Shown here in pieces: positions 1 through 16,531 of a DNA stretch of 64,000 nucleotides (its first letter is position 1; every line of letters begins with the position of its first letter). The stretch comes from Escherichia virus TH34: the sequence record MT446407.1. The stretch is one strand, 5' to 3'. Both the position numbers and the translations under genes were made by a program. Below the pieces are notes generated by a model. It ran no database searches, had not been told where the DNA came from, and saw only the letters and a list, made by a program, of their open reading frames with translations.

Positions 1-1
1 A

Positions 2-962: not shown

Positions 963-1023
963 GGTAGGTTAGCGGCCTCAATGGTCGCTAGTTTATCAAG
1001 ATGCATTAATCGAAAAATAGTTG

Positions 1024-1255: not shown

Positions 1256-1283
1256 TTGACAAGGTGAAACACTCTGTTAGAAT
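1256..1283 (+). promoter_or_regulatory. strong sigma70-type promoter candidate
   Basis: -35 TTGACA 1256-1261, 16-bp spacer, extended -10 TGtTAGAAT 1275-1283, A-rich tract upstream. Confidence 0.5.
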
Positions 1284-1553: not shown

Positions 1554-1582
1554 TTGACACGCTAAACGGGATGATTCATAAT
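1554..1582 (+). promoter_or_regulatory. strong sigma70-type promoter candidate
   Basis: -35 TTGACA 1554-1559, 17-bp spacer, -10 CATAAT 1577-1582, A-rich tract upstream. Confidence 0.5.
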
Positions 1583-2493: not shown

Positions 2494-3396
2494 ATGGCTA
2501 AATCTTTCAATCTGGTTAATGAATCCGGTTTTAACGCACTGGCTAACAACATTCGCAGCAATAACGCAGCAATTAAGCAAGATGTTTCTAACTTCCTGTT
2601 AGGTCACTTACAGCACTTCCGTGCTAACGGTAAGAAGTTAGACGTGTTACAGGCGGCGGTAGACTTCCTGTTAACTGAACGTTACCGTGATTTAGATGTG
2701 ATTGCAGTTGCAATTTCTTTCCTAACTCCTGTTAAGTACAACAGCGACGCGGCGAACGGTAAAAAGAAATGGATTAATCTGGAAGGTGAAGCGAAAGCGA
2801 AAGAAGACGCTAAACCTGAACAAGTTAAGGCCAAAATGGAACAAAACCGTGCCCGCTGGTCTAACTCCTTTGAACGCTTTGCGAAAGGCGAAGACGTGCA
2901 GGTTGATAACCCAGCATTTTATAAAGGTTGCAACGACAACGTTCCGGTAGCAAATCAGATTAACCAGAAGGTTAACGAAAACTTTAATCAGGACATTTAC
3001 GCTTTAACTGATCGTTTGGCTGCAATCCGTATTGAAGCGGCACTACTGGCCGATGAACGCAACGGAGCATCTTCTGATAACACTATCGCATTGAGTGAAG
3101 AAGTAGGCAAAGTTAAGAAAACTTTCGATTCACTCCTTAAGAAAGTAACCGCATCAACTGTATCTATCAGCGATGACTACTTGATTAACGCATCTTCAAA
3201 AGAGCTTGAATCTCTGGACTCATACGCTGATGAAATGGAAAAGGCGATCAACGAAATGACCGAAAAATTGTCTAACCTTCGCGGTCGTATCTCAAATGCT
3301 TCAACTGTCAAAGCGAACGAGAAAGCGGCGGCAGACGAGGAAGAAGTATTGCGTAAAGCTGCCGAGATCATGGCAGCACGCCAACAAGCTGCATAA
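2494..3396 (+). CDS. hypothetical early protein (300 aa)
   Basis: First long ORF after the promoter leader; ATG 2494 with AAAGG upstream; no motif recognised. Confidence 0.6.
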   Translation: MAKSFNLVNESGFNALANNIRSNNAAIKQDVSNFLLGHLQHFRANGKKLDVLQAAVDFLLTERYRDLDVIAVAISFLTPVKYNSDAANGKKKWINLEGEAKAKEDAKPEQVKAKMEQNRARWSNSFERFAKGEDVQVDNPAFYKGCNDNVPVANQINQKVNENFNQDIYALTDRLAAIRIEAALLADERNGASSDNTIALSEEVGKVKKTFDSLLKKVTASTVSISDDYLINASSKELESLDSYADEMEKAINEMTEKLSNLRGRISNASTVKANEKAAADEEEVLRKAAEIMAARQQAA

Positions 3397-3417
3397 CCTA
3401 CAATAAAGAACATATAA

Positions 3418-3450
3418 GGCGCTATTCGAAAGGGTAGCGCCTTTTCTTTT
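3418..3450 (+). terminator. rho-independent terminator
   Basis: Stem GGCGCTA (3418-3424) / TAGCGCC (3435-3441) followed by TTTTCTTTT. Confidence 0.55.
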
Positions 3451-3504
3451 ACTAGTGCATTGATTCAGTGTACTAATCAAAGAAACTAAAAAGAGATAAA
3501 CACC

Positions 3505-3729
3505 ATGCCAAAATTGAAAACAGAAGTTAAGATGTATCGTAACGTCATCAACAACATGACCTATCGAAAAACCGATAAATATGGAATCGAGTGTAAGTGC
3601 ATTCTTACCGGTGAATGGTATCCGTCGCCGATTCAAGAACAAGCGTTAATTGAAAACTCTGTTACTTACACTATCACGCAGGAAACTAAGCTAGGCCGAT
3701 TCCTTCGTAAGTTAGGGCTACGCAAATGA
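3505..3729 (+). CDS. hypothetical protein (74 aa)
   Basis: ATG-initiated ORF in compact array; no similarity recognised. Confidence 0.45.
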   Translation: MPKLKTEVKMYRNVINNMTYRKTDKYGIECKCILTGEWYPSPIQEQALIENSVTYTITQETKLGRFLRKLGLRK

Positions 3730-3947
3730 TCTTAACTCAATCCCATTTGTGTCCTATCTGTAAGAAAGCGCGTGCTAATAACAATCATCGCAAGTGTAGC
3801 AGAATCCTACAGCGTCGTCGTAATGATGCCGAGATGGATAAAATGCACAAAAACCAGCATGAGCACGAAAGAAAACAAGCGGCGATCAATGCATCTTCTG
3901 TAATGTATCGTCGTGTAAGATCACTCCAATATAAGGATGCTATCTAA
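3726..3947 (+). CDS. hypothetical basic Cys/His-containing protein (73 aa)
   Basis: ATGA overlap with upstream stop; CPIC...HRKC residues suggest possible metal binding. Confidence 0.45.
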   Translation: MILTQSHLCPICKKARANNNHRKCSRILQRRRNDAEMDKMHKNQHEHERKQAAINASSVMYRRVRSLQYKDAI

Positions 3948-4156
3948 TGACCAGTTTAAGCACGTTAGAGAAGAAAGCTACTCGACTGCTAGGGCGTCGT
4001 GTCCGCTATCACTACCTGAATAAAGGTAAGGCATTAACCGGACGTATTACCACGGTGTCCAGTCGCTGCGGTAAGTTAATATCTGTAAGTGTCCTCTTTG
4101 ATGGCGAACGTGTAGCAATTACACGTAGTTGGAAGTCGTTTAGTTTAATTGATTAA
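3947..4156 (+). CDS. hypothetical protein (69 aa)
   Basis: TAATG start/stop overlap with upstream gene; TAAGGA upstream. Confidence 0.45.
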   Translation: MTSLSTLEKKATRLLGRRVRYHYLNKGKALTGRITTVSSRCGKLISVSVLFDGERVAITRSWKSFSLID

Positions 4157-4226
4157 GTTATTTGGTTAAGCCTTGCTATGTGGTAAGGCTTGCACGATAT
4201 AATTTATCAGCGAAAGGAATAAAGCA

Positions 4227-4670
4227 ATGGCTAAATCTAAAATCAGCATGAAAGGCGGGCGTGTGTTCTCGATGAGTGAACTGGAAAAAGATAAGCCAGT
4301 CGCTACTAACCACATTAGCAAACGTAGCCTTAAACGTAGAGCTATCAAACAAACCGCTCAAGAACATAAACCCTCTACCGTAGCAAAGGTGTTAGGTCGT
4401 CGTGTTCATCGTGCTGATGCGCTTCTTAAAGCTGATCATAACCGTTCACTGTTAACCAACGGTGCAGCGAAAACAGAAGAAGAGAAACGTTTAGAAATCT
4501 ATTGCAACGGTCGCACTAAAGGTAAGCAGAAGAATAAAGGTAGCACTAAGCCACCGAAAGCTTTCCCTACTACTAGTCAATGTGCACCGGATGTTTTCTA
4601 CGCTGACAGTCAGCATAAGTGGGGAGTCGAAAAATACATTGACCCCATCAAGGAAGCGAGAGTAAAGTAA
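4227..4670 (+). CDS. hypothetical Lys/Arg-rich basic protein (147 aa)
   Basis: ATG 4227 with AAAGGA upstream; highly basic composition. Confidence 0.5.
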   Translation: MAKSKISMKGGRVFSMSELEKDKPVATNHISKRSLKRRAIKQTAQEHKPSTVAKVLGRRVHRADALLKADHNRSLLTNGAAKTEEEKRLEIYCNGRTKGKQKNKGSTKPPKAFPTTSQCAPDVFYADSQHKWGVEKYIDPIKEARVK

Positions 4671-4728
4671 GCCTCTTCTCTGTACCAGTAGTCAACTACT
4701 ATGACGCTCTTCTTGAGCGTCTTTGTGT
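4671..4728 (+). repeat. conserved post-stop element, copy 1 (GCCTCTTCTCT...CTACTATGACGC + hairpin)
   Basis: Near-identical 11-12-nt blocks shared with 11773-11828; both copies start right after a stop codon and end in a terminator hairpin. Confidence 0.4.
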
Positions 4729-4751
4729 CTGCCGCCTTTGTGCGGCTTTTT
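4703..4751 (+). terminator. tandem rho-independent terminators
   Basis: Hairpin GACGCTC/GAGCGTC (4703-4721) + TTTGTGT; hairpin GCCGC/GCGGC (4731-4746) + TTTTT. Confidence 0.5.
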
Positions 4752-4911
4752 GCGTAGCTAGTGATGCCTAAAGGGCACTCCCTTTGTGAATCATTGGCAT
4801 GGTTCAATCCCTATTGGATGGTCATTTGACCGGGCCTTTAACGAGGCCGCTTTTTTAAGAGTCTTTACGAGGATTCTTAAATGAGTGAGGTCATGTTCAC
4901 TCTTTCAGGTC

Positions 4912-4938
4912 GCCCCGTCTTCGGATGGGGCTTTTTTA
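4912..4938 (+). terminator. rho-independent terminator
   Basis: Stem GCCCC (4912-4916) / GGGGC (4927-4931), then T6. Confidence 0.55.
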
Positions 4939-4989
4939 TGCCCGTAAAACAGGAGGTAGTAAGTTCTGATAACGACAGCCCAGCTACTT

Positions 4990-5376
4990 TTGACATTGAC
5001 TATTTATTATGAGGCAGGGAATCAGCCAACCGCTTGCAAAGCATTAGTAGCGGATACCGTAATAAACAGAATGTCACAACGAAAACTGACTGCCGAGCAG
5101 GTTATAAACCAACGAAACCAGTTCGAGTGGATACCCGTCTTATTAAAGAAGGAGAAACCTTTCAAACGTTATGTAAAGCTAATTCGTGATGATAATCCCC
5201 TGATAAAGAAGTCAATCAGAGAGAGCGAGCGGCTTGCAAGGCGTGCACTGAAGAAAAGTTATGTGCCTTTATACAGTGGTACATACTTTCAGAGTAAGAG
5301 CGAAGGGGTGCCAAAGTGGTATACCAATCCAATGTATTGTGGTGATTTAGTGTTCAATAATAGTGCCCGTGACTGA
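4990..5376 (+). CDS. SleB/CwlJ-like cell-wall hydrolase domain protein (start uncertain)
   Basis: YYEAGNQP...VINRM...NQFEW resembles the EARGE...NR...QF pattern of the cell-wall hydrolase family; track start is TTG; frame is open upstream to 4963 behind a strong AGGAGG. Confidence 0.4.
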   Translation: MTLTIYYEAGNQPTACKALVADTVINRMSQRKLTAEQVINQRNQFEWIPVLLKKEKPFKRYVKLIRDDNPLIKKSIRESERLARRALKKSYVPLYSGTYFQSKSEGVPKWYTNPMYCGDLVFNNSARD

Positions 5377-5577
5377 TTCATAGGTGCCAAGATTGACAAA
5401 CTAAATTTCCTTATAAATCACCTACTTATGATTTTCTCTGCAAAAAGTGGTAGTGATTCGGAACCAGAGGTAATGACTGTATATAGACCTCTGAAAATTA
5501 TTGATAGAAATTAAGTTTAGAAATAATAAATTCTAAATAATATTTCTTATAATATCTTACTTTAAGAGGATAAAGAT

Positions 5578-5883
5578 ATGTCTTTAGAGGTGTATAAGTT
5601 CCTTCTCGTACTCACTGTAACGATTTCTACTCTGGGATTTATTGCTTTAAGTAATAAGTCAGCAAGCTGGAAGCGTCGTTATGAGTTTCTTCTTAAGCAA
5701 GAGGAAGTCTTTAATGCTGATGTTCGTTCCAAGTTGGTCAAGATGCAGGAGCAAATTGAAGCACGTAATGATCGTTTGGCTTCTTTGGGTTGGGAGATTA
5801 AGAGTATTCAAGATCTCAACAAGCAACTCACTGAAGAGATTAAACGCCAGAATGAGGAAACAGAGGATGCGCTCAAAGGTTAA
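5578..5883 (+). CDS. membrane-anchored coiled-coil protein (101 aa)
   Basis: AAGAGGA upstream; N-terminal hydrophobic helix then charged heptad-like region. Confidence 0.5.
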   Translation: MSLEVYKFLLVLTVTISTLGFIALSNKSASWKRRYEFLLKQEEVFNADVRSKLVKMQEQIEARNDRLASLGWEIKSIQDLNKQLTEEIKRQNEETEDALKG

Positions 5884-6043
5884 GTTTACCACTGGTCACA
5901 CTGTTCGCCTTGTTGGCGGTACTCAAACAGGCGTTATTCGTCGGAGAACAACAATTGACGGTGTTCTCTGTTATCTTGTTCAGTGGAATGGTGAATCCTC
6001 TCCTTCCTTCGAACGTCGTACTGATTTGGTGTTAATCAAATGA
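5867..6043 (+). CDS. hypothetical small protein (58 aa)
   Basis: ATG 5867 with GAGGA upstream; track ORF 5681 is an overlapping extension. Confidence 0.4.
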   Translation: MRSKVKFTTGHTVRLVGGTQTGVIRRRTTIDGVLCYLVQWNGESSPSFERRTDLVLIK

Positions 6044-6225
6044 CAAGTAAAGTAAAGATCAATGATAACGTTGTCTATGCACAAAAAGGTTTCTCATTGG
6101 TTCCTTTAATTGGGAAGGTTATTTGGGTGTGTGGTGGTGTTGTTCAAATTAAAGCACCAAGTGGTCGTCTTGTTACTCGTTGGCGTGATGAAGTCATCAT
6201 TCTTCCGAAGGAGTACGGTCAATGA
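6040..6225 (+). CDS. hypothetical small protein (61 aa), resembles preceding ORF
   Basis: ATGA-coupled start; shares a KVK...V..G... pattern with 5867..6043. Confidence 0.45.
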   Translation: MTSKVKINDNVVYAQKGFSLVPLIGKVIWVCGGVVQIKAPSGRLVTRWRDEVIILPKEYGQ

Positions 6226-6461
6226 AGATGAATTTCGAAATCGTCCCAAGGACTAAACAGAAGACGTTAACTTTCGGTGATTTATCTAATGGAGATATCT
6301 TCAAGTTTAAAAATCCCGATGCTGACACTTTTTTCTGGATGAAGATTGCTTCGCCGTTTTCGTCGGCTATGAAGTTAAGCAACACCTCTGACATACTCAA
6401 GGTTTCTGCGAACGCTGAAGTTAAAAAGTATGAATACAAAATTCTTATTGAGGGTAAATAA
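6222..6461 (+). CDS. small protein, GD(V/I)F paralog family
   Basis: Motif TFGDLSNGDIFKF near N-terminus; ATGA-coupled. Confidence 0.5.
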   Translation: MKMNFEIVPRTKQKTLTFGDLSNGDIFKFKNPDADTFFWMKIASPFSSAMKLSNTSDILKVSANAEVKKYEYKILIEGK

Positions 6462-6691
6462 TGAAAATCAACCTCTCCCCTGAAGTTGTTACTAAAAAGC
6501 TCGATGAGTTGCGTCCGGGTGATGTGTTCCGTTTACCTGTTAACTCAGAACACCTCTACCTAAAAACTGATGTGTGTTTGAGTGGTATGCGTCGAGTGGT
6601 TGGTCTTGGTCAGGGAACACTGTTCCAGTTACAGGAAGATCACGAAGTTATTCCTGTACGTAATGTTCAAGTAACTCGTATCGGTGGTTAA
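6461..6691 (+). CDS. small protein, GD(V/I)F paralog family
   Basis: Motif LRPGDVFRL; TAATG-coupled. Confidence 0.5.
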   Translation: MKINLSPEVVTKKLDELRPGDVFRLPVNSEHLYLKTDVCLSGMRRVVGLGQGTLFQLQEDHEVIPVRNVQVTRIGG

Positions 6692-6916
6692 ATGAAGATT
6701 GATATCGACAATACACCAGCGGTTGTAACTCTCGGTGATCTAAATCCGGGTGAAGTCTTCCAGTTTAATTACAACGAAACTCAATATTACATGCGTACTG
6801 CATGTTACGGTGAAAACAAAAGTTATTTTGTTAACCTTTATACAGGTAAACGTGAATCTGAGTGTAAATCAACTGTAGTCAGACCTTTGCCTAACGCACG
6901 ATTAACCAATAAGTAA
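6692..6916 (+). CDS. small protein, GD(V/I)F paralog family
   Basis: Motif LGDLNPGEVFQF. Confidence 0.5.
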   Translation: MKIDIDNTPAVVTLGDLNPGEVFQFNYNETQYYMRTACYGENKSYFVNLYTGKRESECKSTVVRPLPNARLTNK

Positions 6917-6923
6917 CATCGAC

Positions 6924-7040
6924 TTATAGCCCTTGTGCTTATCAGAGGGCTATGTGAGGATGTTCCTCAATTAACTATAATCTCAATGCCATATGGCTCA
7001 CCGCTAGGGCGAGACTTGTCTCAAACATCCGGTGATAGAC
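6924..7040 (+). repeat. conserved intergenic element, copy A (possible structured RNA or operator)
   Basis: Shares with 12771-12900 an identical hairpin ATAGCCCT/AGGGCTAT (12-nt loop) plus two further stems that differ in sequence but keep pairing (GAGGA/TCCTC vs GAGC/GCTC; GAGAC/GTCTC vs GAGGA/TCCTC). Confidence 0.4.
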
Positions 7041-7146
7041 TAAAACCTGTTTAATTTTCGAATGGCATTCCGATATGTAGGGGTATGTATCGGTTTGGGA
7101 TAGAGAACAATCTAGGGGTAGAGAGTTCTCGACAGTTTGTACAAGC

Positions 7147-7180
7147 GGAAGCCTTAACGTGTAGGGCTTCCCTTTATATT
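7147..7180 (+). terminator. rho-independent terminator candidate
   Basis: Stem GGAAGCC (7147-7153) / GGCTTCC (7165-7171), then CTTTATATT. Confidence 0.4.
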
Positions 7181-7219
7181 AACTGGCAACCCTGCCTCCA
7201 CTAACAAAGAGAGAACGTT

Positions 7220-7360
7220 ATGAAGAAGTCAACCAAGCGTATGAACCGTCCTGAACGTATGGATGCAGTAGCAAATGGCGCTCTGAAGATTGAGTCTGCC
7301 ATGCTTCGTCTGACAACTAACATCCGTAAACGTCAAGGTGATTGGTTCTATGGCGGCTGA
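7220..7360 (+). CDS. hypothetical small protein (46 aa)
   Basis: ATG 7220 to TGA 7358-7360; below the track length cut-off; weak RBS. Confidence 0.3.
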   Translation: MKKSTKRMNRPERMDAVANGALKIESAMLRLTTNIRKRQGDWFYGG

Positions 7361-7547
7361 GCATGATGTTGGTATTCGTGAGATTATTCGTCTTGCGATA
7401 ATTGATCACCCTAACAGTCGCAATGGCCTATTGTTACAGGTTTCTAAATGTCTTAATTGTGACAAAGATGTGGCCAAAGAATTATTCTTTGCATTCATCT
7501 ATAACGCAGATGATCGCTTCTTGAATAACAAGTTGCGTAGTGCTTAA
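7350..7547 (+). CDS. hypothetical protein (65 aa)
   Basis: ATG 7350 with AAGGTG upstream, in frame with track ORF 7338. Confidence 0.4.
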   Translation: MAAEHDVGIREIIRLAIIDHPNSRNGLLLQVSKCLNCDKDVAKELFFAFIYNADDRFLNNKLRSA

Positions 7548-7552
7548 TAAGA

Positions 7553-7583
7553 GGCTGCCCTTCGGGGTGGCCTTTGTTGTTTT
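7553..7583 (+). terminator. rho-independent terminator
   Basis: Stem GGCTGCCC / GGGTGGCC (two G-U pairs), TTCG loop, then TTTGTTGTTTT. Confidence 0.5.
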
Positions 7584-7626
7584 AATTAAGAGGTAGCTCT
7601 TACTTAAACTAATAAGAGAGGTTGAT

Positions 7627-7857
7627 ATGAAGATTAACGTTGTAAAGAAAGAAAAGAAATCTGCTACCTTTGCTGACTTAGCAATCGGCGACGTGTTTCA
7701 ACTTGCCGATGGTATAAAAACTCTGATCTACATGCGTGTTTTCAATAGCCGTGCTATCTGCCTTAACAATCCTACATGCCTCGAATCTACAACACGGATT
7801 AACAGCGATACTTCTATCATCCAGCTCCGTGCAGAGCTAATTGTCACCGAGGTTTGA
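7627..7857 (+). CDS. small protein, GD(V/I)F paralog family
   Basis: Motif FADLAIGDVFQL. Confidence 0.5.
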   Translation: MKINVVKKEKKSATFADLAIGDVFQLADGIKTLIYMRVFNSRAICLNNPTCLESTTRINSDTSIIQLRAELIVTEV

Positions 7858-7858
7858 T

Positions 7859-8068
7859 GTGAACATTCGTTTAGTTCGTAAGCAAGATGGCAGACAGGTT
7901 GTGCTAGGTGAGATTGTTTGTGCTGCACATAACCTACTCCCTGAAAAAGATGAAACTATCTGGTTTGATGGAGAGCAGCGCCGAGTATTGTCGGTTGTTA
8001 AATCTTTCGAGCCAAAGCGTAACAATGAAAAAGCTCTTACCTGTTGGTTTGAGGTTGATATTACATAG
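7859..8068 (+). CDS. hypothetical protein (start GTG 7859 or TTG 7841)
   Basis: No in-frame ATG; GTG 7859 follows upstream stop and a GAGG. Confidence 0.4.
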   Translation: MNIRLVRKQDGRQVVLGEIVCAAHNLLPEKDETIWFDGEQRRVLSVVKSFEPKRNNEKALTCWFEVDIT

Positions 8069-8076
8069 AGGTTGAT

Positions 8077-8328
8077 ATGCGTAATCCATTTTTTGATCGT
8101 AAAGGTCGCACCGAAATTCTGATACCTTCTATCGGTGTGCCGGTTAAGTTTGGTGAGATGCGTGCTGGTGATTTCTTCATGGAATCAGGACATCTTTATC
8201 TGAAGATCGACCTTGAACATGCTGTTGAAATTCTTAGTGATAATAAGCCAATCATAGGAACTTCAATGTTCAGTACAAATCACACTGTATTTGTTGTCAA
8301 CGTCCAGATTGAGATTAAAGCGCCATGA
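8077..8328 (+). CDS. small protein, GD(V/I)F paralog family
   Basis: Motif FGEMRAGDFFME. Confidence 0.5.
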   Translation: MRNPFFDRKGRTEILIPSIGVPVKFGEMRAGDFFMESGHLYLKIDLEHAVEILSDNKPIIGTSMFSTNHTVFVVNVQIEIKAP

Positions 8329-8633
8329 CAATTTCATCTTCAACTCGCTGCAACCCTAATGTAGATATCCGTGCTCAAATGTCTAAGATGCCCGGTGTGA
8401 CTCATTTAGAGTTCACCTACAGTCACTCGCGGTATGAACCGGGCTTTACTGTGGTAATAAAATCCCCGTGGTTAACAATGACATTACTGTCGGATGAAGT
8501 TGAGAAGGCAGTGAATGGTATTAAATCAGGCGGGCTTAAACTTTTATCCACTGAACTGGCTGATGAGTTCATGCCTCTTATCCGTAAAGGTGTGGCTAAA
8601 ATGAATAAAATGATGGAGGCTGCAAAGCAATGA
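8325..8633 (+). CDS. hypothetical protein (102 aa)
   Basis: ATGA-coupled ORF. Confidence 0.5.
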   Translation: MTISSSTRCNPNVDIRAQMSKMPGVTHLEFTYSHSRYEPGFTVVIKSPWLTMTLLSDEVEKAVNGIKSGGLKLLSTELADEFMPLIRKGVAKMNKMMEAAKQ

Positions 8634-8884
8634 CAAACTTCCGAGCAGCAGTTATTACGAAAGTAATAGCAGTTGGTGACGTAATGATGCAGGTTCCTCT
8701 AAACACTCGTTACATTGCCATTGACCAAACAGGTTATGTGTGGGCGTGGAAGTGGAAGCCTACTTATAATGAGCTGTTCGACGAATACCAGTGCGCTGGA
8801 CCTTACATGCCAACCTTAATTGGTGTGTATGAAGGCAGCTCTTGTCATACTCCTCAGTTAATTGAACTACCGGCGTGTGCTTAA
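8630..8884 (+). CDS. hypothetical protein (84 aa)
   Basis: ATGA-coupled ORF. Confidence 0.5.
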   Translation: MTNFRAAVITKVIAVGDVMMQVPLNTRYIAIDQTGYVWAWKWKPTYNELFDEYQCAGPYMPTLIGVYEGSSCHTPQLIELPACA

Positions 8885-8885
8885 T

Positions 8886-9047
8886 ATGATTAAGTGGCTA
8901 AAGCGCGTCTTCCATTGTCATGATTGGAAGATTATTAACACCCGTCCTCTGGTCTATACAGATTCAGATGGGAACAATGACAAGGGCACACGTTACGTTA
9001 TTCAGTGTAAGGTGTGTGGTGATGTTAGTCATCGTGATATAATCTAA
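8886..9047 (+). CDS. small HxW...CKVCG protein, paralog 1 of 3
   Basis: ATG 8886 follows upstream TAA; MIKWLKRVFHCHDW...CKVCG. Confidence 0.45.
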   Translation: MIKWLKRVFHCHDWKIINTRPLVYTDSDGNNDKGTRYVIQCKVCGDVSHRDII

Positions 9048-9056
9048 GGAATCATT

Positions 9057-9221
9057 ATGATCAAATGGTTCAAACGCTTCTTTCATTTCCATGAGTGGGA
9101 AGATCTTCATACTTATGAACTGACGATCACGAATAGACTTACTGACAGAGAGCGACAAGGTTTGCGTATCTACTCTCGATGTAAAGTGTGTGGTCTGCAC
9201 AAGAAAACAGATCTGATCTAA
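9057..9221 (+). CDS. small HxW...CKVCG protein, paralog 2 of 3
   Basis: ATG 9057 with AAGGA upstream; MIKWFKRFFHFHEW...CKVCG; below track cut-off. Confidence 0.45.
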   Translation: MIKWFKRFFHFHEWEDLHTYELTITNRLTDRERQGLRIYSRCKVCGLHKKTDLI

Positions 9222-9229
9222 GGGGTGTT

Positions 9230-9439
9230 ATGTTCTTTCGTAAGAAAAAGCCCGAAGATTCTGGATGTAAACACGAGTGGGTGATCACTGAAAACCTACA
9301 CATCACTCACGCTAAAGACACTCCAGTCGAAGCGAAAGAGTCTCGTGTGTCTCGTGTTTGTAAACTCTGTTTGAAAATAGAGCAGCACAAAGTTCCCGGT
9401 CATATCGGTCACGATGTGGCCTTGCGTATCTTCAGTTAA
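9230..9439 (+). CDS. small HxW...CKLC protein, paralog 3 of 3
   Basis: ATG 9230 with AAGGGG upstream; CKHEW...CKLC. Confidence 0.45.
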   Translation: MFFRKKKPEDSGCKHEWVITENLHITHAKDTPVEAKESRVSRVCKLCLKIEQHKVPGHIGHDVALRIFS

Positions 9440-9448
9440 ACAAACTCA

Positions 9449-9524
9449 GCACCCTTAGCTCAATGGATAGAGCAGCGACCTTCTAAGTCGTTGGTTACAG
9501 GTTCGAGTCCTGTAGGGTGCACCA
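9449..9524 (+). tRNA. tRNA-Arg: tRNA-Arg (anticodon UCU)
   Basis: Cloverleaf by eye: acceptor GCACCCT/AGGGTGC, D-arm GCTC-AATGGATA-GAGC, anticodon loop CUUCUAA, T-arm CAGG-TTCGAGT-CCTG, encoded CCA. Confidence 0.8.
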
Positions 9525-9542
9525 ATCAATATAGGAGGGCAT

Positions 9543-9869
9543 ATGAGCTGGGGTGGTGTAATTACCTTAACCTGTATCTTTATCGCCTGTGTAGCTCTTA
9601 CAGGCTGCGTACAGCATCGTCCTGATGGGTGGTGTGCATTATCTGTAGAAGGTGTCTGTGTTTCCCGTTGGCACAGCGGAGAGAAGATTCCTAGTGGAGA
9701 AATTGATATGCGTTATGCTGGTGCTTCTTGTTCCAATGGCGGTGCTGTTGACGAGAAGGCTTATGCAGGTCGTGACATGGCTACCCAAGGTGATTGGTCA
9801 CGTTACGACTTCATCTCCCGTGGTGAGATGTGTGGTGGCTCTGTGACAACAACTGGTAAGGAGTGGTGA
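9543..9869 (+). CDS. predicted lipoprotein (108 aa)
   Basis: Strong RBS AGGAGGG; signal peptide ending in lipobox LTGC. Confidence 0.55.
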   Translation: MSWGGVITLTCIFIACVALTGCVQHRPDGWCALSVEGVCVSRWHSGEKIPSGEIDMRYAGASCSNGGAVDEKAYAGRDMATQGDWSRYDFISRGEMCGGSVTTTGKEW

Positions 9870-9870
9870 T

Positions 9871-10125
9871 ATGTCCGGTCATTATTCTGATACGAAAGCT
9901 CTACTTGAAACAGCGGCTCAAACTTCATGCCAACAGCAAGTAAAGATGTTGTTGGTTGATATTCGTAATCTTCGCTGGCTTATCAAAGAAGGTCATATCG
10001 GAAACGCTGCCTATTACAACGTTAAAGATATCCTTCGCCGCCAGCACTTCCTTATCCACGGAAACGTGGTAACTCGCAACTATCAATGGAACGGTCAATG
10101 GTTACAGCAGCGTATGTCCTCCTGA
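9871..10125 (+). CDS. hypothetical protein (84 aa)
   Basis: ATG 9871 with TAAGGAG upstream. Confidence 0.45.
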   Translation: MSGHYSDTKALLETAAQTSCQQQVKMLLVDIRNLRWLIKEGHIGNAAYYNVKDILRRQHFLIHGNVVTRNYQWNGQWLQQRMSS

Positions 10126-10352
10126 TTTATGTTATTGGTTGGTGGTTGGCAGCCATTGTAGTTAAATGGTGCTTCAAAACCAATACTCTCTACAACTTCT
10201 TCCATTCCTCATGGAGTGGTAAGCCTGATGAATACTCTATTTGGACGGTGATATTCTTCTGGCCTTTTATGCTGATCTTTATCCTCTTCTTACCTTTACT
10301 TATGTTGATAGGCTGGGTAATGGATAAGGTGACAGTCTTTATTACTAAGTAA
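10086..10352 (+). CDS. small integral membrane protein
   Basis: Two or three hydrophobic helices; start 10086 or 10098. Confidence 0.45.
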   Translation: MERSMVTAAYVLLIYVIGWWLAAIVVKWCFKTNTLYNFFHSSWSGKPDEYSIWTVIFFWPFMLIFILFLPLLMLIGWVMDKVTVFITK

Positions 10353-10631
10353 TATCGTGAAGGATTCTTACGAGAGTCCTTTGAGATAGGACTTCAGATC
10401 TCCTATCAACTAACCGCTCAATGTTGAGCATTTTAATCACACAAGCCCCTCATGGGCTGGGTTTAATGCCGGTAAGCGTTTTACGCTATCCACTACAGCA
10501 TCGGATTGTTAGGTCTTACATGCAATATTAATTAATAGGATATGGGAGGATTCGTCCCCTCCCCCTATTTATGAAAGCATTCTTCCGAGAGTTCTCTCAT
10601 AAATTGGTCCATAACTAAAGGTGATGAAGTT

Positions 10632-10862
10632 ATGCCGGTAACAATCTGGGAAACAAAGCGACACCTTAAAGCTATTCAGATGGAACGCAAAAACGAACTG
10701 AGAATGATTTATGAAAAGTTAACCTACTCGGTTCTCTACCATCGTCGTCTGGTTAGAATTATAAAACCTAGTGCATTCGGTACTGCTCACTGGTATAAAG
10801 TTACCAATGCGTATCGAGATGCAGTTAATGCTCTTGAAGAGTTCGTAAACTCTCACAAATAA
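10632..10862 (+). CDS. hypothetical protein (76 aa)
   Basis: ATG 10632 with AAAGGTGA upstream. Confidence 0.45.
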   Translation: MPVTIWETKRHLKAIQMERKNELRMIYEKLTYSVLYHRRLVRIIKPSAFGTAHWYKVTNAYRDAVNALEEFVNSHK

Positions 10863-10872
10863 AGGTGATGAA

Positions 10873-11127
10873 ATGAAAGTTAACATGCCAGCAGGTAAAA
10901 ATTCAATACCCCTCAGTGCTTTGCGACTTGGGGATTGCTTCATGTACCCTAACAGTGAAGATGGTGATTTGTACATCTTACTGTCTACCGAGTTCTCAAC
11001 TCGACTCTGCATCAAGGGCGCGGATGAGCACAGACTTGTAGCCTGTCTTAACACGGGCAGAGCGACAGCACCTCGTAAAGATGTTGCTGTTATTCCTATT
11101 AAAGCTGAAGCAACTATTAAGGAATGA
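10873..11127 (+). CDS. small protein, GD(V/I)F paralog family (divergent)
   Basis: Motif LRLGDCFMY; AAAGGTGA upstream. Confidence 0.5.
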   Translation: MKVNMPAGKNSIPLSALRLGDCFMYPNSEDGDLYILLSTEFSTRLCIKGADEHRLVACLNTGRATAPRKDVAVIPIKAEATIKE

Positions 11128-11130
11128 GCA

Positions 11131-11397
11131 ATGACAATCCTTACTATCAATAAGACCCATGTTGCAGACATTCCTGTGACTGTGAAGGATGTTCCTGAGG
11201 GTTCATTCTTTACCTTAAATGAAGACGATGTACAGATTGTATATCTTAAGGTAAATAAATCTTCTAACAACGCTGAATACAACCGAGCGGTAGTTGTTAG
11301 CTCCGGATATGTCCGTCAACTGGCGCACAACCTTCGTGTACGTGTTCTCTACACATCAGCAACTCTGGATTTAGTGGAGAAGATCAGTGAAACATAA
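11131..11397 (+). CDS. small protein, possible GD(V/I)F family member
   Basis: Motif VPEGSFFTL; AAGGA upstream. Confidence 0.45.
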   Translation: MTILTINKTHVADIPVTVKDVPEGSFFTLNEDDVQIVYLKVNKSSNNAEYNRAVVVSSGYVRQLAHNLRVRVLYTSATLDLVEKISET

Positions 11398-11659
11398 GGA
11401 TGGTTCAAAGTATGTATCACTATTGGATGCAGCCCTTCTCTGCACGTACTGGCTCCTTATTGTTATTGGGGTCGTGCTAGGGCTATGTGGTATCGTACAA
11501 TTCTTTATGTACCTGCAAAGCGTGTTAGATATCACACTAGCTAACACTATAATCCTTGCAATTCTCGGTATTATTGCTTTCTGTGTGATTGTCTTCTTCG
11601 TTTGGTTATCTATGAACGACGACTCTACACACCTTCTATTGACAGGAGAAAATCAGTGA
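11387..11659 (+). CDS. small integral membrane protein
   Basis: GTG start with GGAG upstream; two hydrophobic helices. Confidence 0.45.
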   Translation: MKHKDGSKYVSLLDAALLCTYWLLIVIGVVLGLCGIVQFFMYLQSVLDITLANTIILAILGIIAFCVIVFFVWLSMNDDSTHLLLTGENQ

Positions 11660-11772
11660 GAAAACGTGCCTACTCTGAAGAAGAGATGGTTAGCCTGAAA
11701 GGCTTTGGTCAGCGACAGCCTGATGGCTCAGTTATCTGGTACATTAACGGACAGAAAAAGGCAAGTAAATAA
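11656..11772 (+). CDS. hypothetical small protein (38 aa)
   Basis: GTG 11656 overlapping upstream TGA, AGGAG 7 nt upstream; ends directly at repeat copy 2. Confidence 0.3.
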   Translation: MRKRAYSEEEMVSLKGFGQRQPDGSVIWYINGQKKASK

Positions 11773-11828
11773 GCCCTCTTCTCTCCTCCCTTTAGCTACT
11801 ATGACGCCTCTCTTTTCGGCGCTGTTTT
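11773..11828 (+). repeat. conserved post-stop element, copy 2 (GCCCTCTTCTCT...CTACTATGACGC + weak terminator)
   Basis: Same blocks as 4671-4728; GC stem 11805-11808/11818-11821 then CTGTTTT. Confidence 0.4.
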
Positions 11829-11840
11829 GGAGCTTCAAAA

Positions 11841-12254
11841 ATGTCTGGGAAATTCCCCAACGTAAGCAAGAAATTGGCTTACCTCACGTATAAAGAAAAC
11901 ATTGATCTTCTGGTCAAACTTTATCCGGCTTCATTCAACAAGCAATTCCCTCTTCCTTTGGAGCTTAACATCCATAAGGAAATCGCCCGCAAGACCGGTT
12001 GGTCAGCGGAGAAAACAAGCATGGTGCTCAACATCTGGACTACTCGTATGGAGTATGTGATGATGGCATGTAGCACTGGTAAGCGCTTCAAGCTGCACTC
12101 TGTAGCTATGAAGATTCGTAGTCCTATTGACCCTGAGCCGATGGCTGGGTTCAGCAGTCGTCTGAAAGCTTTCCGTGATAAACGTCGTGTGGTGAAGTTC
12201 AAGCACGATTTCTCGTACAAGTTTGGATACGAAGCGTTCCAATTCGTTGTTTAA
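11841..12254 (+). CDS. ProQ/FinO-like RNA-binding protein candidate
   Basis: LVKLYPASF..FPLPLELNIHKEIARKTGWSAEKTSMVLNIWTTRMEY aligns by eye to the ProQ/FinO N-terminal domain. Confidence 0.4.
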   Translation: MSGKFPNVSKKLAYLTYKENIDLLVKLYPASFNKQFPLPLELNIHKEIARKTGWSAEKTSMVLNIWTTRMEYVMMACSTGKRFKLHSVAMKIRSPIDPEPMAGFSSRLKAFRDKRRVVKFKHDFSYKFGYEAFQFVV

Positions 12255-12282
12255 TCTCTCTTTAATTTAAGGTAATAAAAAC

Positions 12283-12516
12283 ATGTCTAAAGTTAGCGCA
12301 ATTGATGCCATCCGTCAGCCGTTCCAGTTTGAATCCAAGTCAACTCAGACCCAAAGTGAACCGCGTCAGATTCGTCTGGGTGGTACAGAGAAGTCTGTGT
12401 TTGATATTGCGAAAAACAAAAGCGTGACCATCGTCGAAGGCGGTGAGCTGGTTAATGTTTCCCACCGTATCCGCACTGGCAAAACTGCCAAAGATCGTGC
12501 TAAGAAAGGTCTGTAA
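12283..12516 (+). CDS. hypothetical protein (77 aa)
   Basis: ATG-initiated ORF in compact array. Confidence 0.45.
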   Translation: MSKVSAIDAIRQPFQFESKSTQTQSEPRQIRLGGTEKSVFDIAKNKSVTIVEGGELVNVSHRIRTGKTAKDRAKKGL

Positions 12517-12767
12517 TGCAAATTGCTAATAAAACCCCTCCTGAATCAATTACCCAAGTAAAGGATATGTCACCGGGAGATGTATTTCGTGCAACGGAAT
12601 ATCCGGGGGAGTTCTTTATTCGAATCCCCTCAGCTTCTGTTGGTGGCATTGCTAAACCTGTAACAGCAGTTCAGCTAAGTACAGGACATCTCTTCCGTTT
12701 AGAGATTGACATGGTTGTAATCCCTGTTCCAACAGCAATCCTTCGCTTTGACGGAGCCACAGAGTAA
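12516..12767 (+). CDS. small protein, GD(V/I)F paralog family
   Basis: Motif MSPGDVFRATEYPGEFF. Confidence 0.5.
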   Translation: MQIANKTPPESITQVKDMSPGDVFRATEYPGEFFIRIPSASVGGIAKPVTAVQLSTGHLFRLEIDMVVIPVPTAILRFDGATE

Positions 12768-12770
12768 CAT

Positions 12771-12900
12771 TTATAGCCCTTGTGAGTATCAGAGGGCTAT
12801 GTGAGCTATTCTGGCTCAACTAACCTAAACTTAATTTAATCTTACCCGTATGGGGCCGATGCTAGGGAGAGGAATAGTCCTCGAACATCCGTCGGATAGA
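12771..12900 (+). repeat. conserved intergenic element, copy B
   Basis: See copy A (6924-7040); also follows the stop of a GD(V/I)F family gene. Confidence 0.4.
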
Positions 12901-12963
12901 ATATTTTAAGAGCAGGTTATCCACAGATATTGGGTGATATCTATTTAATTGGCCTTAAAGCTT

Positions 12964-12988
12964 GGCTCTCTTAGGAGAGTCCTTTTTT
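12964..12988 (+). terminator. rho-independent terminator
   Basis: Stem GGCTCTC / GAGAGTCC then T6. Confidence 0.5.
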
Positions 12989-13008
12989 AAGTTCAAAGAA
13001 GAGGTTGT

Positions 13009-13176
13009 ATGGATAATAAGTTGAAAGTTAAGTTCTTATTGGCAGCAATCTTTATTTGCTTAGCCACCGTGGGGTTTGTCAGAACCTATTCTTTTGCATC
13101 TTGTGAGTTAAGCAAGAACAACAGAGGGGCTTACAACTGGCTGACCAATCAATGTGATAAACAGGAGAAGTTATGA
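13009..13176 (+). CDS. small secreted/membrane protein (55 aa)
   Basis: ATG 13009 with AGAAGAGG upstream; N-terminal hydrophobic segment; ATGA-coupled to next gene. Confidence 0.3.
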   Translation: MDNKLKVKFLLAAIFICLATVGFVRTYSFASCELSKNNRGAYNWLTNQCDKQEKL

Positions 13177-13535
13177 ACCTACGCCCCATCAAAGGCCATG
13201 TGAACCTGTCTACGCTGCATAAAGTAGCAAATGATTTGGGTGGCATGGACGAGAATGATTTGGAGCAGAATTTGCTCTGGATTGCTAATGGTATCAAGGC
13301 GGCAAAGGCCAAAATGGCTCGTGCACAAAGCAAACTAAAGGCGAATAAATATCTTATTCGTCGTCGTAATACCTTACCTCAGGATGTGGTGAGTTTGGCT
13401 GTGGCAGGATACAATGCAGCAGAGGTAGAACTTCAGGAAGCAGAATTTGAAAAGATGCGCTTCCAAGAGAACTATCGAAACTTCCGTAGCATTGCCTACA
13501 TTCGTAAATCTCTGAGCCTTTTGGTAGCAGAGTAA
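13173..13535 (+). CDS. hypothetical protein (120 aa)
   Basis: ATG 13173 with ACAGGAGAAG upstream. Confidence 0.5.
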   Translation: MNLRPIKGHVNLSTLHKVANDLGGMDENDLEQNLLWIANGIKAAKAKMARAQSKLKANKYLIRRRNTLPQDVVSLAVAGYNAAEVELQEAEFEKMRFQENYRNFRSIAYIRKSLSLLVAE

Positions 13536-13546
13536 AGAGGTAAAAG

Positions 13547-14764
13547 ATGTTCCCTGTAACACTTCAAAGCTGGAAAGAATCAGAAGACGTTGTAACCGTC
13601 TGGCCCCCTTGTTATGGTTTCCTGAAAGCAGGTTACTATCAGGGTGGTGATTATGACGAAGATGAAGATGGTGATCCTGATTACTATAATACATACGATA
13701 GTAATTTCGGCTGGAATATCCGCATCAAGGTGTGGAGTGGAAATATGATGGTTCGTCAAGGCACTGCTGAAGAGAACGTTCTTGAGAATATGTTGCCTAT
13801 GTCTGAAATCAAGTATATCTGGAACTCCGGAACACATCTTCCAGCTCACGGTGTAAGACGTTATGGTGATACTGAATATATCGCTACTCAGTATTTCCGT
13901 GAAGGGTTAGAAAATGAAGACCCTCGTCCTCCTTCTCATGTGGAAACATGGGCAGAAGAAAACAACCGTCCTGATATCACTGATCGTGTTGTTATGGAAA
14001 CCTTTGCAGCATTCATGGATAAAGACCTTGACTCATGTCTGGTATGGCATGAAGTAGGGTTCATGGGTGTTTGTACTGATGGCTGTCCCGCTGATCGTGC
14101 TCTGTTCTATCTGATGTTGAATCGCACATTCTATACAGATGATGAAAAATCTGCTGTGTATGAAATGTTGAACAAGATGTATAAGAAGGGCTGGTCTCCT
14201 TTAGCCTCTCTTGCATTCAGCCGACTGATCAACTCTTCAGTGGATGTGTTCGGTAACGAACGTGTTGCTTTAACAGGGAATGATTACGATTCCTGTATCT
14301 TCCAAGCATCTCTGTATACAGTGGGTGTTGGTAGTACGATGATTGAGCCTCGCCAGACCAAATGGCGACAGTGTGAATACACTGAAGGTGAAGGTCATCT
14401 TCGTGATGAAGACTTCTCCAGTCTGATCTATCGCGGTGAAGGTGTTCGTGATTGTCGAGTGAACAACTCGATGTTCTTGCCAATCCTTTTGCCTCAATAT
14501 TGCCATCTGTCGGAAGATACCCGCCCAATCATCACAGAAAAGTCACTCTTGGTTGAATTTATCCGAGAGGTGGCTGAATCTGAAACATCTTTTGCTAAAA
14601 TTGTGTTCGGTTATAACTGGAACAATGAAACAGCTTCAGCTCGAAGCTACAACATGTATAACATTATCAGTAGTATGTCCAATGGACTGACAGGTAGTAA
14701 TTATACAGTACGTCCCTCAGAAGAGTGGGAAAACATTTTGGAAAAATTATTCTTCAATAAATAG
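13547..14764 (+). CDS. hypothetical acidic protein (405 aa), first gene of amide-ligase cluster
   Basis: ATG 13547 with AAGAGG upstream; Asp/Glu-rich N-terminus; no motif recognised. Confidence 0.6.
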   Translation: MFPVTLQSWKESEDVVTVWPPCYGFLKAGYYQGGDYDEDEDGDPDYYNTYDSNFGWNIRIKVWSGNMMVRQGTAEENVLENMLPMSEIKYIWNSGTHLPAHGVRRYGDTEYIATQYFREGLENEDPRPPSHVETWAEENNRPDITDRVVMETFAAFMDKDLDSCLVWHEVGFMGVCTDGCPADRALFYLMLNRTFYTDDEKSAVYEMLNKMYKKGWSPLASLAFSRLINSSVDVFGNERVALTGNDYDSCIFQASLYTVGVGSTMIEPRQTKWRQCEYTEGEGHLRDEDFSSLIYRGEGVRDCRVNNSMFLPILLPQYCHLSEDTRPIITEKSLLVEFIREVAESETSFAKIVFGYNWNNETASARSYNMYNIISSMSNGLTGSNYTVRPSEEWENILEKLFFNK

Positions 14765-14772
14765 AGGCGAAT

Positions 14773-15723
14773 ATGTCAATCTCCGCATCGACTGCTCCGG
14801 TAACACCAGCAGAGAACTTTGGTGAGTCAGTGTTCAGAGGGCGAGCTTGTTTTGGTACTTTCAACTGTCAGCATATGTATTCTGTTACAGACATTAATGG
14901 CGACAGTATCAATCTCTCAAGCCTTCGTGATAGAACTTCAGAAATTGGAGTTATTAACTTCTGGCCTCACAATTTTTATGGCGTACCAGCTAAAGATATC
15001 GAAAGAGCTTTAGTTGAAGCAACAGACATTTTTAACTCAATGTCTTGCTATAAAAACATGTTCTCTGTCACTTCGGTGAACTCAGTTGCCGTGAACCTTC
15101 GAGACCACCCAGCAGACAAGGTGTTTACTGGATTAATGACCCTCCGGAGTTATCTGGATGGGGATTTTATGGGAATGGAGTTCCTTCAGGAAGGCGTTCA
15201 AGACAAGGAAGAGTTGCTCAAGCGACAACGAATCGGCTTAGCTTTACGCTTGGCTGGTTTAAGTCGTAACTTCTTTGGTCGTTGGGATTATTCACATGAT
15301 GTGGATACTGATGATGAATCAGCAGCGACCTATTTTACCGGTGAAATGAGTGCAATCGCATTCTTGCCACTGGTCTGTTCAACTGATGAATTTTCTGAAA
15401 ACGTATGGGTTCAGAATGTATTTGGTGTTGACGATAACAGAGATGGTTATGTACGAAACCATAATGACGGAGTTCTCCGCCGTATGGCTCGTCGTCGTGA
15501 CCAAGACCCTGACTATTACGAGAGTATGAGTGAGTGGTTGCGTCTCTGGTCAATGTGTGCAGGCCATAAACGTGAAGTATTAGATCAGCGTATGGACAGA
15601 ATTACTGTTCACAGTTTTATTGAACGCTTGATGCAAGCAGTACCTTCCTCAATGACACCAGAAGAAGCTGGTGCCCGTGTTGTTTCCCTTTTTGATGAAC
15701 TTGTGGAGTATTACAATGACTAA
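14773..15723 (+). CDS. hypothetical protein (316 aa), amide-ligase cluster
   Basis: ATG 14773 with AGAGG upstream; no motif recognised. Confidence 0.6.
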   Translation: MSISASTAPVTPAENFGESVFRGRACFGTFNCQHMYSVTDINGDSINLSSLRDRTSEIGVINFWPHNFYGVPAKDIERALVEATDIFNSMSCYKNMFSVTSVNSVAVNLRDHPADKVFTGLMTLRSYLDGDFMGMEFLQEGVQDKEELLKRQRIGLALRLAGLSRNFFGRWDYSHDVDTDDESAATYFTGEMSAIAFLPLVCSTDEFSENVWVQNVFGVDDNRDGYVRNHNDGVLRRMARRRDQDPDYYESMSEWLRLWSMCAGHKREVLDQRMDRITVHSFIERLMQAVPSSMTPEEAGARVVSLFDELVEYYND

Positions 15724-16522
15724 GCGTGCTTTCCTTATTGGTTCTGACCCTGAAATGTTTGTTCGTACTGCTTCTGGTGTTATCACCTCTGTGGCTGGTA
15801 AGCTGGGCTGTTCTAAAGATAACAAAATCGATCTGGCCCCTGATGTTCGTCTTCAAGAAGACAACGTTCTGGCTGAATTTGATATTAACCCACAGAAAGG
15901 GTTCGAAGCGTTTGATGATAACATCCAGCGTGGTATTGATCTGACCAACAAAGTTCTTAATGAACGTGGTATGGAAGCTGCACTTGGGATTAGTTCTCAT
16001 GTGTACACTTCTGAAGAGCTGCAATCATTCCATCCATCAGCCTTTGTGTTTGGCTGTACTCCTGATTTCAACGCCTTCACTGGTCAGAAAAACCCATCTC
16101 CGGTAGCGACAGACAAAGGTCTGCGTACTGCTGGCGGTCACGTACACCTCGGTGTTGCAGGGTCTTTGGAAGTAACTCGACAGACTCAGATGATGCTGGG
16201 TGTTCTCTGTGATTACTTCCTGTCACTTCCAGCAGTAATTATGGATAAGGACACTCGTCGTAAAGAGCTTTACGGCAAGGCATCTGCTATTCGTTATAAA
16301 GATTATGGTATTGAATACCGTTCTCTGTCGAACTTCTGGATTGGTGAACAGTCCACTCGTAAGTTTGTTTACGATCAAGTTGATAAGGTTATTCAGGGCT
16401 GTGATATGGAAATTCTCATGTCTCTGCACTCCCGTCTGCCTATCGAAAAGCTTCACAACATCATCAATAGCAATGATGTTAAAGAAGCGGATAAGTTCTC
16501 CTCTAAACTCCAGATTATCTAA
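15716..16522 (+). CDS. amidoligase-like (glutamine-synthetase-fold COOH-NH2 ligase) protein
   Basis: ATG 15716 with GGAG upstream; acidic IGSDPEMFV segment and GGHVHLG resemble the phage amidoligase family. Confidence 0.45.
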   Translation: MTKRAFLIGSDPEMFVRTASGVITSVAGKLGCSKDNKIDLAPDVRLQEDNVLAEFDINPQKGFEAFDDNIQRGIDLTNKVLNERGMEAALGISSHVYTSEELQSFHPSAFVFGCTPDFNAFTGQKNPSPVATDKGLRTAGGHVHLGVAGSLEVTRQTQMMLGVLCDYFLSLPAVIMDKDTRRKELYGKASAIRYKDYGIEYRSLSNFWIGEQSTRKFVYDQVDKVIQGCDMEILMSLHSRLPIEKLHNIINSNDVKEADKFSSKLQII

Positions 16523-16531
16523 GGTGTTATC

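Follow-up and report, generated by a model that had tools for sequence, protein, structure and literature searches.

Do eight small genes of Escherichia virus TH34 form one family, and what might their products do? The stretch of DNA analyzed, referred to here as the window, comprises 64,000 nt of this genome (MT446407.1), that of a phiEco32/ECBP2-like Gordonclarkvirinae podovirus of E. coli, ∼91% identical to ECBP2. An initial annotation, made from the sequence, had proposed that the window carries an expanded and diversified family of eight small early proteins of 74–88 amino acids (aa). All eight open reading frames (ORFs) were found on the + strand at the starts given there, and profile comparisons confirm that they are paralogues of one family. 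They are named here by their first nucleotide and are listed with the expectation (E) values at which each was recognized by a profile of the other seven (held-out) and by an external profile.

6222..6461, + strand: o6222, 79 aa, isoelectric point (pI) 9.4; held-out E 3e-6; external E 5e-12
6461..6691, + strand: o6461, 76 aa; held-out E 2e-13; external E 5e-17
6692..6916, + strand: o6692, 74 aa; held-out E 8e-8; external E 5e-18
7627..7857, + strand: o7627, 76 aa; held-out E 2e-7; external E 2e-15
8077..8328, + strand: o8077, 83 aa; held-out E 1e-4; external E 5e-6
10873..11127, + strand: o10873, 84 aa; held-out E 9e-5; external E 2e-17
11131..11397, + strand: o11131, 88 aa; held-out E 6e-5; external E 5e-11
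12516..12767, + strand: o12516, 83 aa, pI 5.2; held-out E 2e-9; external E 1.5e-15

The Eight Genes Are Paralogues of One Family

In a MAFFT alignment, identity to the first member is 16%–26%, and the invariant positions are M1, one glycine, and one phenylalanine. Pairwise phmmer searches link some of the proteins, with no significant partner for o10873 and o11131. Because pairwise identity is low and these links are partial, profile statistics were needed. In leave-one-out tests with hidden Markov models (HMMs) of seven members each, the held-out protein always ranked first among the 404 window ORFs with a length of ≥40 aa (E 2e-13 to 1e-4), the next ORF lying at 0.04 or above. An external HMM of 99 sequences, none of them ≥40% identical to any window member, recovered these eight and no others (E 5e-18 to 5e-6), the next window ORF lying at 0.66. 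Comparison by hhalign of a 118-sequence profile with the + strand ORFs of ≤140 aa ending before 44,500, which is partly circular since the profile includes the eight, gave them probabilities of 96%–99% and all others ≤31%. The three approaches agree, and multiple alignment, one of the checks suggested at the outset, thus yields a shared family that is statistically supported at the profile level despite low pairwise identity. Cross-matches to the PHROGs database were also seen: phrog_7832 was matched by six of the eight proteins and phrogs 16423, 6570, 9955, and 7431 by four each. No ninth member was found by the profile tests among the 404 window ORFs. The small ORFs 6040–6225 and 7841–8068 were considered as hidden members and rejected, as neither scored in the HMM or hhalign tests.

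The signatures by which the family had been recognized are less general than the family itself. The motif (F/L)(G/A)(D/E)(L/M)xxG(D/E)(V/I/F)F is complete in o6222, o6692, o7627, and o8077 and absent as a full pattern from the other four; within it, the glycine and the last phenylalanine are the sole invariant residues. The later aromatic-basic block holds in the relaxed form [YFW][MLI][KR] for seven of the eight proteins, whereas HLYLK itself is limited to o6461 and o8077.

All eight genes have a Shine-Dalgarno-like motif (GGAG/GAGG/AAGG type) 6–13 nt upstream. Stop/start overlaps join ORF 6040–6225 to o6222, o6222 to o6461, and the conserved gene 12283–12516 to o12516. Ratios of nonsynonymous to synonymous substitution (dN/dS) were computed against ECBP2, SU7, Bas88, PAS59, Bas86, and TH43. 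They are 0.00–0.30 for all seven members with orthologues, compared with 0.05–0.37 for neighboring genes, and these are therefore genuine coding genes. No gene-wide positive selection was found with these six relatives (dN/dS ≤0.30).

Could the eight nevertheless be chance ORFs or decaying duplicates that have a short motif in common? An identity of merely 16%–26%, the two members lacking a significant pairwise match, and a strict motif confined to half of the set would suit such an artefact. However, the profile tests isolate exactly these eight ORFs, dN/dS lies between 0 and 0.30, orthologues occur in many phages, and, as described below, confident structure models were obtained for o6461 and o8077 and 739 related clusters exist elsewhere. 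This explanation is already contradicted by the profile, dN/dS, orthologue, and structure tests and is barely credible.

Predicted Fold and Variable Loops

Structure prediction, also among the suggested checks, was run for two members and gave confident all-β models of the same architecture. The AlphaFold2 model of o6461 was computed from the 118-sequence alignment and has five strands (predicted local distance difference test [pLDDT] 88.1; predicted template modeling score [pTM] 0.74). That of o8077 (pLDDT 81.1; pTM 0.67) consists of an o6461-type core with long N- and C-terminal strands. In these predicted models the five-strand small barrel superposes on known SH3-like domains, and the fold is predicted to be a five-strand SH3/Tudor/KOW-like barrel to which the N- and C-terminal segments add strands.

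The SH3-like barrels compared were the ribosomal L2 C-domain, the DtxR/IdeR SH3 domain, EF-P domain I and KOW, and Tudor, together with CarD, the UvrD C-terminal domain, FeoA, HspQ, and the VapX antitoxin. The window family differs from them in its extra N- and C-terminal strands, is 3%–21% identical to them, and has no family-level sequence match; functional motifs specific to any of these SH3-like families were not detected in it. No Pfam KOW match (NusG/Spt5/L24/EF-P type) was found at E ≤1 among the 118 members, and neither these nor the eight matched the bacterial SH3 families SH3_3, SH3_4, and SH3_5. When the 118-sequence profile was run against PDB sequences, nothing scored below E 0.4, and EF-P domain I stood at E 0.85. 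In Foldseek searches of predicted viral structures (BFVD), every hit was a small uncharacterised protein, and the hits came from many different lytic phages (N4 gp21, GAP52, NJ01, Paul, Hera, Myduc, Cronus, Vp_R1, tf, ZC08, and others), and the hit lists of the o6461 and o8077 models overlap.

Across the 118 sequences, the most conserved columns lie in predicted strands or are glycines. Three parts are hypervariable: the N-terminal linker, the loop that follows GDVF, and the one connecting strands 2 and 3; residues 4–13, 24–31, and 37–44 (o6461 numbering) are variable and rich in insertions and deletions. The family is mostly acidic or neutral, with a median pI of 5.75 and 12% of members above pI 8. 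General nucleic-acid binding was rejected as a common role because it conflicts with this charge distribution. The pI values of the window paralogues span 5.2–9.4, which suggests different partners.

A Large Family in Lytic Phages

A search of 1.84 billion cluster representatives (clusters at 50% identity) with the profile of the eight members gave 739 matches at E ≤1e-3. Most relatives are single-domain proteins of 69–97 aa, with the consensus MKI-(∼10 variable)-F.DL..GDVF-(variable loop)-YMK-(variable, indel-rich loop)-NAV.L.TG-...-D..V.PV-..L.I. Natural two-domain fusions of 120–170 aa also occur, and P0054, P0061, and P0071 contain three to six repeats; the proteins with two to six tandem domains are P0049, P0050, P0054, P0060–P0062, P0064, and P0071. 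From these fusions and the long arrays described below, the domain is an autonomous module. The fusions hint that separate paralogues might associate, and P0054 has an extra Cys-rich C-terminal tail. For long proteins carrying SH3_3, DUF5666, or RCC1 repeats, the match covered just one half of the profile, and they were set aside as generic resemblance; P0052, a long SH3_3-repeat lysozyme, was treated likewise because only the N-terminal half of the profile matched.

The most extreme expansion was seen in a metagenomic contig (Logan SRR20819488 contig 94917, 1–4659; L012), where 15 consecutive same-strand members of ∼78–94 aa are arranged with stop/start overlaps and a tRNA-Ser is also present. 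The contig is 4.7 kb long and cut at both ends, so that the array has at least 15 copies; no relative of it was found among 50,697 phage records. N4-like metagenomic contigs have two members each, one of which is placed among early genes, immediately upstream of a DUF4326 gene. Tandem pairs of members in two metagenomic contigs related to each other (L011:833–1355 and L013:805–1327) lie directly upstream of a tRNA-repair module, composed of a gene for a T4 Rnl1-type RNA ligase and a polynucleotide-kinase-like gene.

Two proteins of well-known phages can be placed beside the window members. N4 gp21 (74 aa; YP_950499) is a sequence relative, matched at E 2.4e-17 with no second hit in the 45 kb of N4 searched, and its predicted fold is the same (BFVD matches). 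LUZ24 gp7 (77 aa; YP_001671880) is a probable member (E 1e-7), which has no GD motif. Both resemble the window members in length and in their early or middle position, a position common to Kuravirus-like phages, N4 and the N4-like contigs, and LUZ24. They are single-copy or nearly so, whereas the window has eight. LUZ24 (L022 5443–13075) and the window (13547–22063) also have in common a block of amidoligase, COOH-NH2 ligase, glutamine amidotransferase, RimK-like ligase, and gamma-glutamyl cyclotransferase genes. In LUZ24 this block is located downstream of the small early genes, and its sharing indicates that the early-region architecture is conserved across distant podoviruses.

No clear member was found in 124 kb of T4 covering its early and middle regions, and none in the early region of LUZ7. 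T4 Ndd.1, Pin, and ModB were not accepted as members, the first showing a weak N-terminal match and the other two motif-level echoes. The match of ndd.1 (NC_000866 166101–166316, 71 aa; 'FKDVKVGEIFCL...LIRIS') has E 8e-5 among 244 ORFs and 16.5 bits, and Ndd.1 may be a distant relative.

Scans of Pfam, NCBIfam, and PADLOC, the last of which models proteins of defense systems and not their inhibitors, gave no family-level match, and at E ≤1 no Pfam family was common to more than 2 of the 118 members. The best PHROGs matches of the window members (7832, 16423, 6570, 9955, 7431, 12612, 10911, and 22099) are all labeled 'unknown function'; PHROGs keeps them as separate unannotated groups with no SH3-like description, whereas here they fall into one family. 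Literature searches on N4 gp21, Kuravirus anti-defense, and phiEco32 early proteins turned up no study of the function of any member. Judged by these sequence comparisons, the family is phage-specific, very large, pan-phage, and previously undescribed, and it is not peculiar to TH34. What is new is the sequence family; the SH3-like fold and the kind of gene, small accessory early phage genes, are already known.

Copy Number and Turnover among Related Phages

Positions 6000–13000 of the window are ∼90%–93% identical, over 66%–87% of the query, to ECBP2, NC-B, IME267, Bas86–88 (BASEL), TH43, and others, and the match to Kuravirus proper (MN05, SGF2) is patchy. The comparison of copy number across related phages that had been recommended was carried out with the A2 HMM at E ≤0.01 and gave 5–9 copies in 11 Gordonclarkvirinae.

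Window's clade: window 8, ECBP2 7, PAS59 7, Bas88 6, TH43 6, SU7 5, Bas86 5
Kuravirus side: phiEco32 9 (gp95, 96, 97, 98, 104, 109, 113, 114, and 115), SU10 9, SGF2 9, MN05 8
Others: Salmonella phage 7-11 4 (right-hand 45 kb), N4 1 (first 45 kb)

The presence of each member was counted among the seven phages of the window's clade, the window included. The core set consists of o6461, o8077, o10873, o11131, and o12516, and the variable set of o6222 (3/7), o6692 (4/7), and o7627 (1/7). Within the core, o10873 is the most conserved (95%–100% identity among relatives; dN/dS 0–0.09) and leads a tandem pair, the second gene of which, o11131, has orthologues just 65%–67% identical with a synonymous rate (dS) above 1 (dN/dS 0.17–0.26). 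For o12516, identity is 95%–100% in most close relatives and 63% in SU7 (dN/dS 0.03–0.18). The most divergent member, o8077, has an N-terminal extension and is found in 7/7 phages (dN/dS 0.15–0.19), as is o6461 (dN/dS 0.21–0.30). Among the variable genes, o6222 (dN/dS 0.11–0.15) leads a tightly coupled trio, and alleles of o6692 are 57%–93% identical among relatives. The remaining one, o7627, is present in the window alone; its nearest relatives are phiEco32 gp109 and SU10_0107 (47%–49% identity), and it starts directly 3′ of the terminator-like hairpin at 7550–7575. It lies in a mosaic segment (7627–8633) in which ORFs 7627, 7841–8068, and 8325–8633 are without a counterpart in ECBP2 and the intervening 8077–8328 has one. 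By tblastn, ORFs 6040–6225 and 7841–8068 have no match in ECBP2, phiEco32, or MN05.

Divergence of the family exceeds that of its surroundings. For o6222, o6461, o6692, and o11131, both dN and dS are well above those of most neighbors (dS 0.5–1.9 versus 0.06–0.4). The high dS indicates that these alleles are old and were probably swapped by recombination, beyond fast evolution in place. The Kuravirus sets occupy similar positions and are mostly <40% identical to the window's set, compared with 55%–89% for neighboring genes, so that the members are much more diverged than their gene neighbors. The presence of three of the eight genes in just one to four of seven close relatives points to a dispensable and dynamic character, and on these comparisons the members are accessory genes that are gained, lost, and swapped.

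Such turnover bears on the possibility that the paralogues hetero-oligomerize into one phage-internal assembly serving, for example, replication or nucleotide metabolism. The adjacent, translationally coupled genes 6222/6461/6692 and 10873/11131 would agree with this, as would the fusions of two to six domains elsewhere, a hint of the Rosetta-stone type, and the retention of a core of five in 7/7 close relatives. A fixed complex, however, would not tolerate a copy number that ranges from one in N4 through four to nine to at least 15, and three of the eight genes are often missing from close relatives. A shared assembly is therefore rather improbable.

Genome Position and Expression Class

Small + strand genes extend from ∼2.5 kb; beyond them come larger genes for metabolism and replication, and large − strand genes begin at ∼44.8 kb of the window. 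The eight family genes account for ∼2 kb, roughly 2.6% of the 78-kb genome. Upstream of the whole early block, an ORF-poor spacer, with a ∼2.4-kb stretch lacking any ORF of ≥100 aa, contains three near-consensus sigma-70-type promoters predicted from the sequence.

1024–1051, + strand: predicted sigma-70-type promoter
1256–1283, + strand: predicted sigma-70-type promoter
1554–1582, + strand: predicted sigma-70-type promoter

These lie within 560 nt; TTGACA is perfect in all three, and two have an extended −10. In SU10 and phiEco32, the spacer that separates genes 120 and 121 contains three sigma-70 promoters, before a long early cluster (PMC4281155), and the predicted promoters at 1024–1582 are presumably the strong early promoter cluster known from those phages. 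The early-gene layout of phiEco32 and SU10 has been described (PMC4281155, PMC8948821), and the early gene class of phiEco32 was experimentally determined (per PMC8948821). As the eight genes are on the same strand as the predicted promoters, 4.7–11.5 kb downstream, in a position that matches this layout, we infer that they belong to the early class. The designation 'early' given to them initially is thus supported only by position and homology. Virion proteomics of SU10 lists early products with no family member among them; the sample consisted of virions and is therefore uninformative on expression of the family.

Terminator-like hairpins split the early block at 3416, 7147, 7550, 10544, and 12964, and their number is about twice that in shuffled controls. 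This abundance would be consistent with a role of the proteins in transcription, in which KOW/Tudor-like barrels bind host RNA polymerase or nascent RNA in the manner of the NusG/Spt5 KOW domain, the RNA-polymerase-interacting domains of CarD and Mfd, or the UvrD C-terminal domain, and might, for example, allow early read-through of the hairpins into middle genes. An undefined antitermination strategy is considered likely in phage 7-11 (PMC8948821), and early transcription may continue into middle genes (PMC4281155). Against this stand the lack of a KOW/Tudor Pfam match at E ≤1 in the 118 members and the mostly acidic or neutral character of the family. Moreover, 8–9 paralogues and 15-copy arrays fit poorly with a single RNA polymerase or RNA target, and the RNA polymerase-binding gp79 of phiEco32 (L002 12602–12850) falls outside the family. 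Transcription or RNA-directed factors are thus an unlikely explanation.

Possible Functions of the Family

A role in host shut-off, with each paralogue inhibiting an essential process such as replication, division, transcription, or proteolysis, is suggested by the statement that the early region 'likely plays a role in host takeover' (PMC8948821) and by a small size typical for early inhibitors. In a screen of LUZ24 in P. aeruginosa, however, which supplied the sole experimental observation located for the family, 13 early proteins were expressed and growth was inhibited by gp4, gp6, gp9, and gp11 only. The probable family member gp7 was thus not inhibitory while four neighboring early proteins were, which argues against shut-off and leaves counter-defense or host modulation open. 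Essential targets are also conserved and would not favor 5–9 strongly diverged, partly dispensable copies. Shut-off by each paralogue appears quite improbable.

The explanation favored, tentatively, is that the family consists of small, non-toxic early binder proteins with distinct host or defense targets. The eight genes encode soluble single-domain proteins of ∼75–88 aa belonging to a fast-diverging phage-specific family, and, going by position and homology, host sigma-70 RNA polymerase would transcribe them right after infection. Each paralogue would then act as a small stoichiometric binder, directed to a different host protein by its own variable loops and surface charge and leaving the cell alive. 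The likeliest targets would be components of anti-phage defense or other strain-variable host factors. Duplication, allele exchange, and gain and loss would give a shifting repertoire, with a core of five and variable members.

Several findings weigh against this explanation. Gene-wide dN/dS indicates purifying selection, and an arms race is not demonstrated. A housekeeping role would fit o10873 and o12516 equally well, as both are 95%–100% conserved in most close relatives. LUZ24 gp7, on which the argument from growth relies, is a weak member (25 bits, no GD motif) and was assayed in Pseudomonas, not in E. coli. Finally, the conserved polar residues K2, D16, D21, K35, N45, D60, and E70 could form one functional site, and a common polar site would imply one shared ligand rather than many.

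Defense inhibitors provide an analogy for the binder proteins. Nip of phage Phi3T, an SpbK inhibitor (PMC11984713), and Orf65/TifA of an enterococcal phage, an inhibitor of type IV restriction (PMC10680825), have predicted SH3-like domains. Both are small phage proteins with the SH3-like domain within a defense inhibitor; they are multi-domain and come from Gram-positive phages. By analogy, they offer a lead on what an SH3-like module can do, and no family assignment follows from them. The BASEL study reported remarkable resistance of Gordonclarkvirinae to restriction-modification without a known inhibitor or modification pathway (PMC11990801), which makes a test of counter-defense worthwhile. 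A broader proposal, that many lytic lineages have repeatedly expanded an SH3-like 'binder scaffold' into arrays, that hypervariable loops held by conserved strands provide a changeable repertoire of inhibitors against defense, and that this may explain the resistance of Gordonclarkvirinae, is more speculative and must be regarded as doubtful.

Overall, the results are a solid lead, short of a demonstrated new mechanism, with a plausible functional interpretation. The family is notable for its breadth and repeated tandem expansion with no Pfam entry: it spans N4, phiEco32, Salmonella phage 7-11, probably LUZ24, and, in metagenomes, hundreds of phage lineages, and its definition would allow thousands of 'hypothetical' early genes to be annotated together. 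The family also supplies concrete candidates for the escape of Gordonclarkvirinae from restriction and other defenses. If the idea of a binder repertoire is true, the domain would be a compact natural scaffold for protein inhibitors; if these are ordinary accessory genes, what remains is a cleanly defined family whose fold is predicted.

Neighboring Features

An intergenic element of ∼130 nt is repeated at 6924–7040 and 12771–12895, beginning 4–8 nt past the points where o6692 and o12516 stop. The two copies share 94% identity in a 35-nt core (TTATAGCCCTTGTG..TATCAGAGGGCTATGTGAG), which forms a 10-bp hairpin that lacks a T-run; another conserved block is ..CTCGAACATCCG.., and RNA folding gives z-scores of −2.0 and −2.3. 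Neither copy has an Rfam match, and the element could be a processing or regulatory site.

One tRNA lies in this region:

9449–9524: tRNA-Arg(TCT)

An Rfam scan of positions 1–14000 likewise returned tRNA-Arg only. Just upstream of it, a second small paralogue family is formed by the tandem ORFs 8886–9044, 9057–9218, and 9230–9436 (52–68 aa). Their products have F..H(D/E)W ... CK(V/L)C in common, are 29%–42% identical to the first with 11 columns invariant, and may be zinc-binding.

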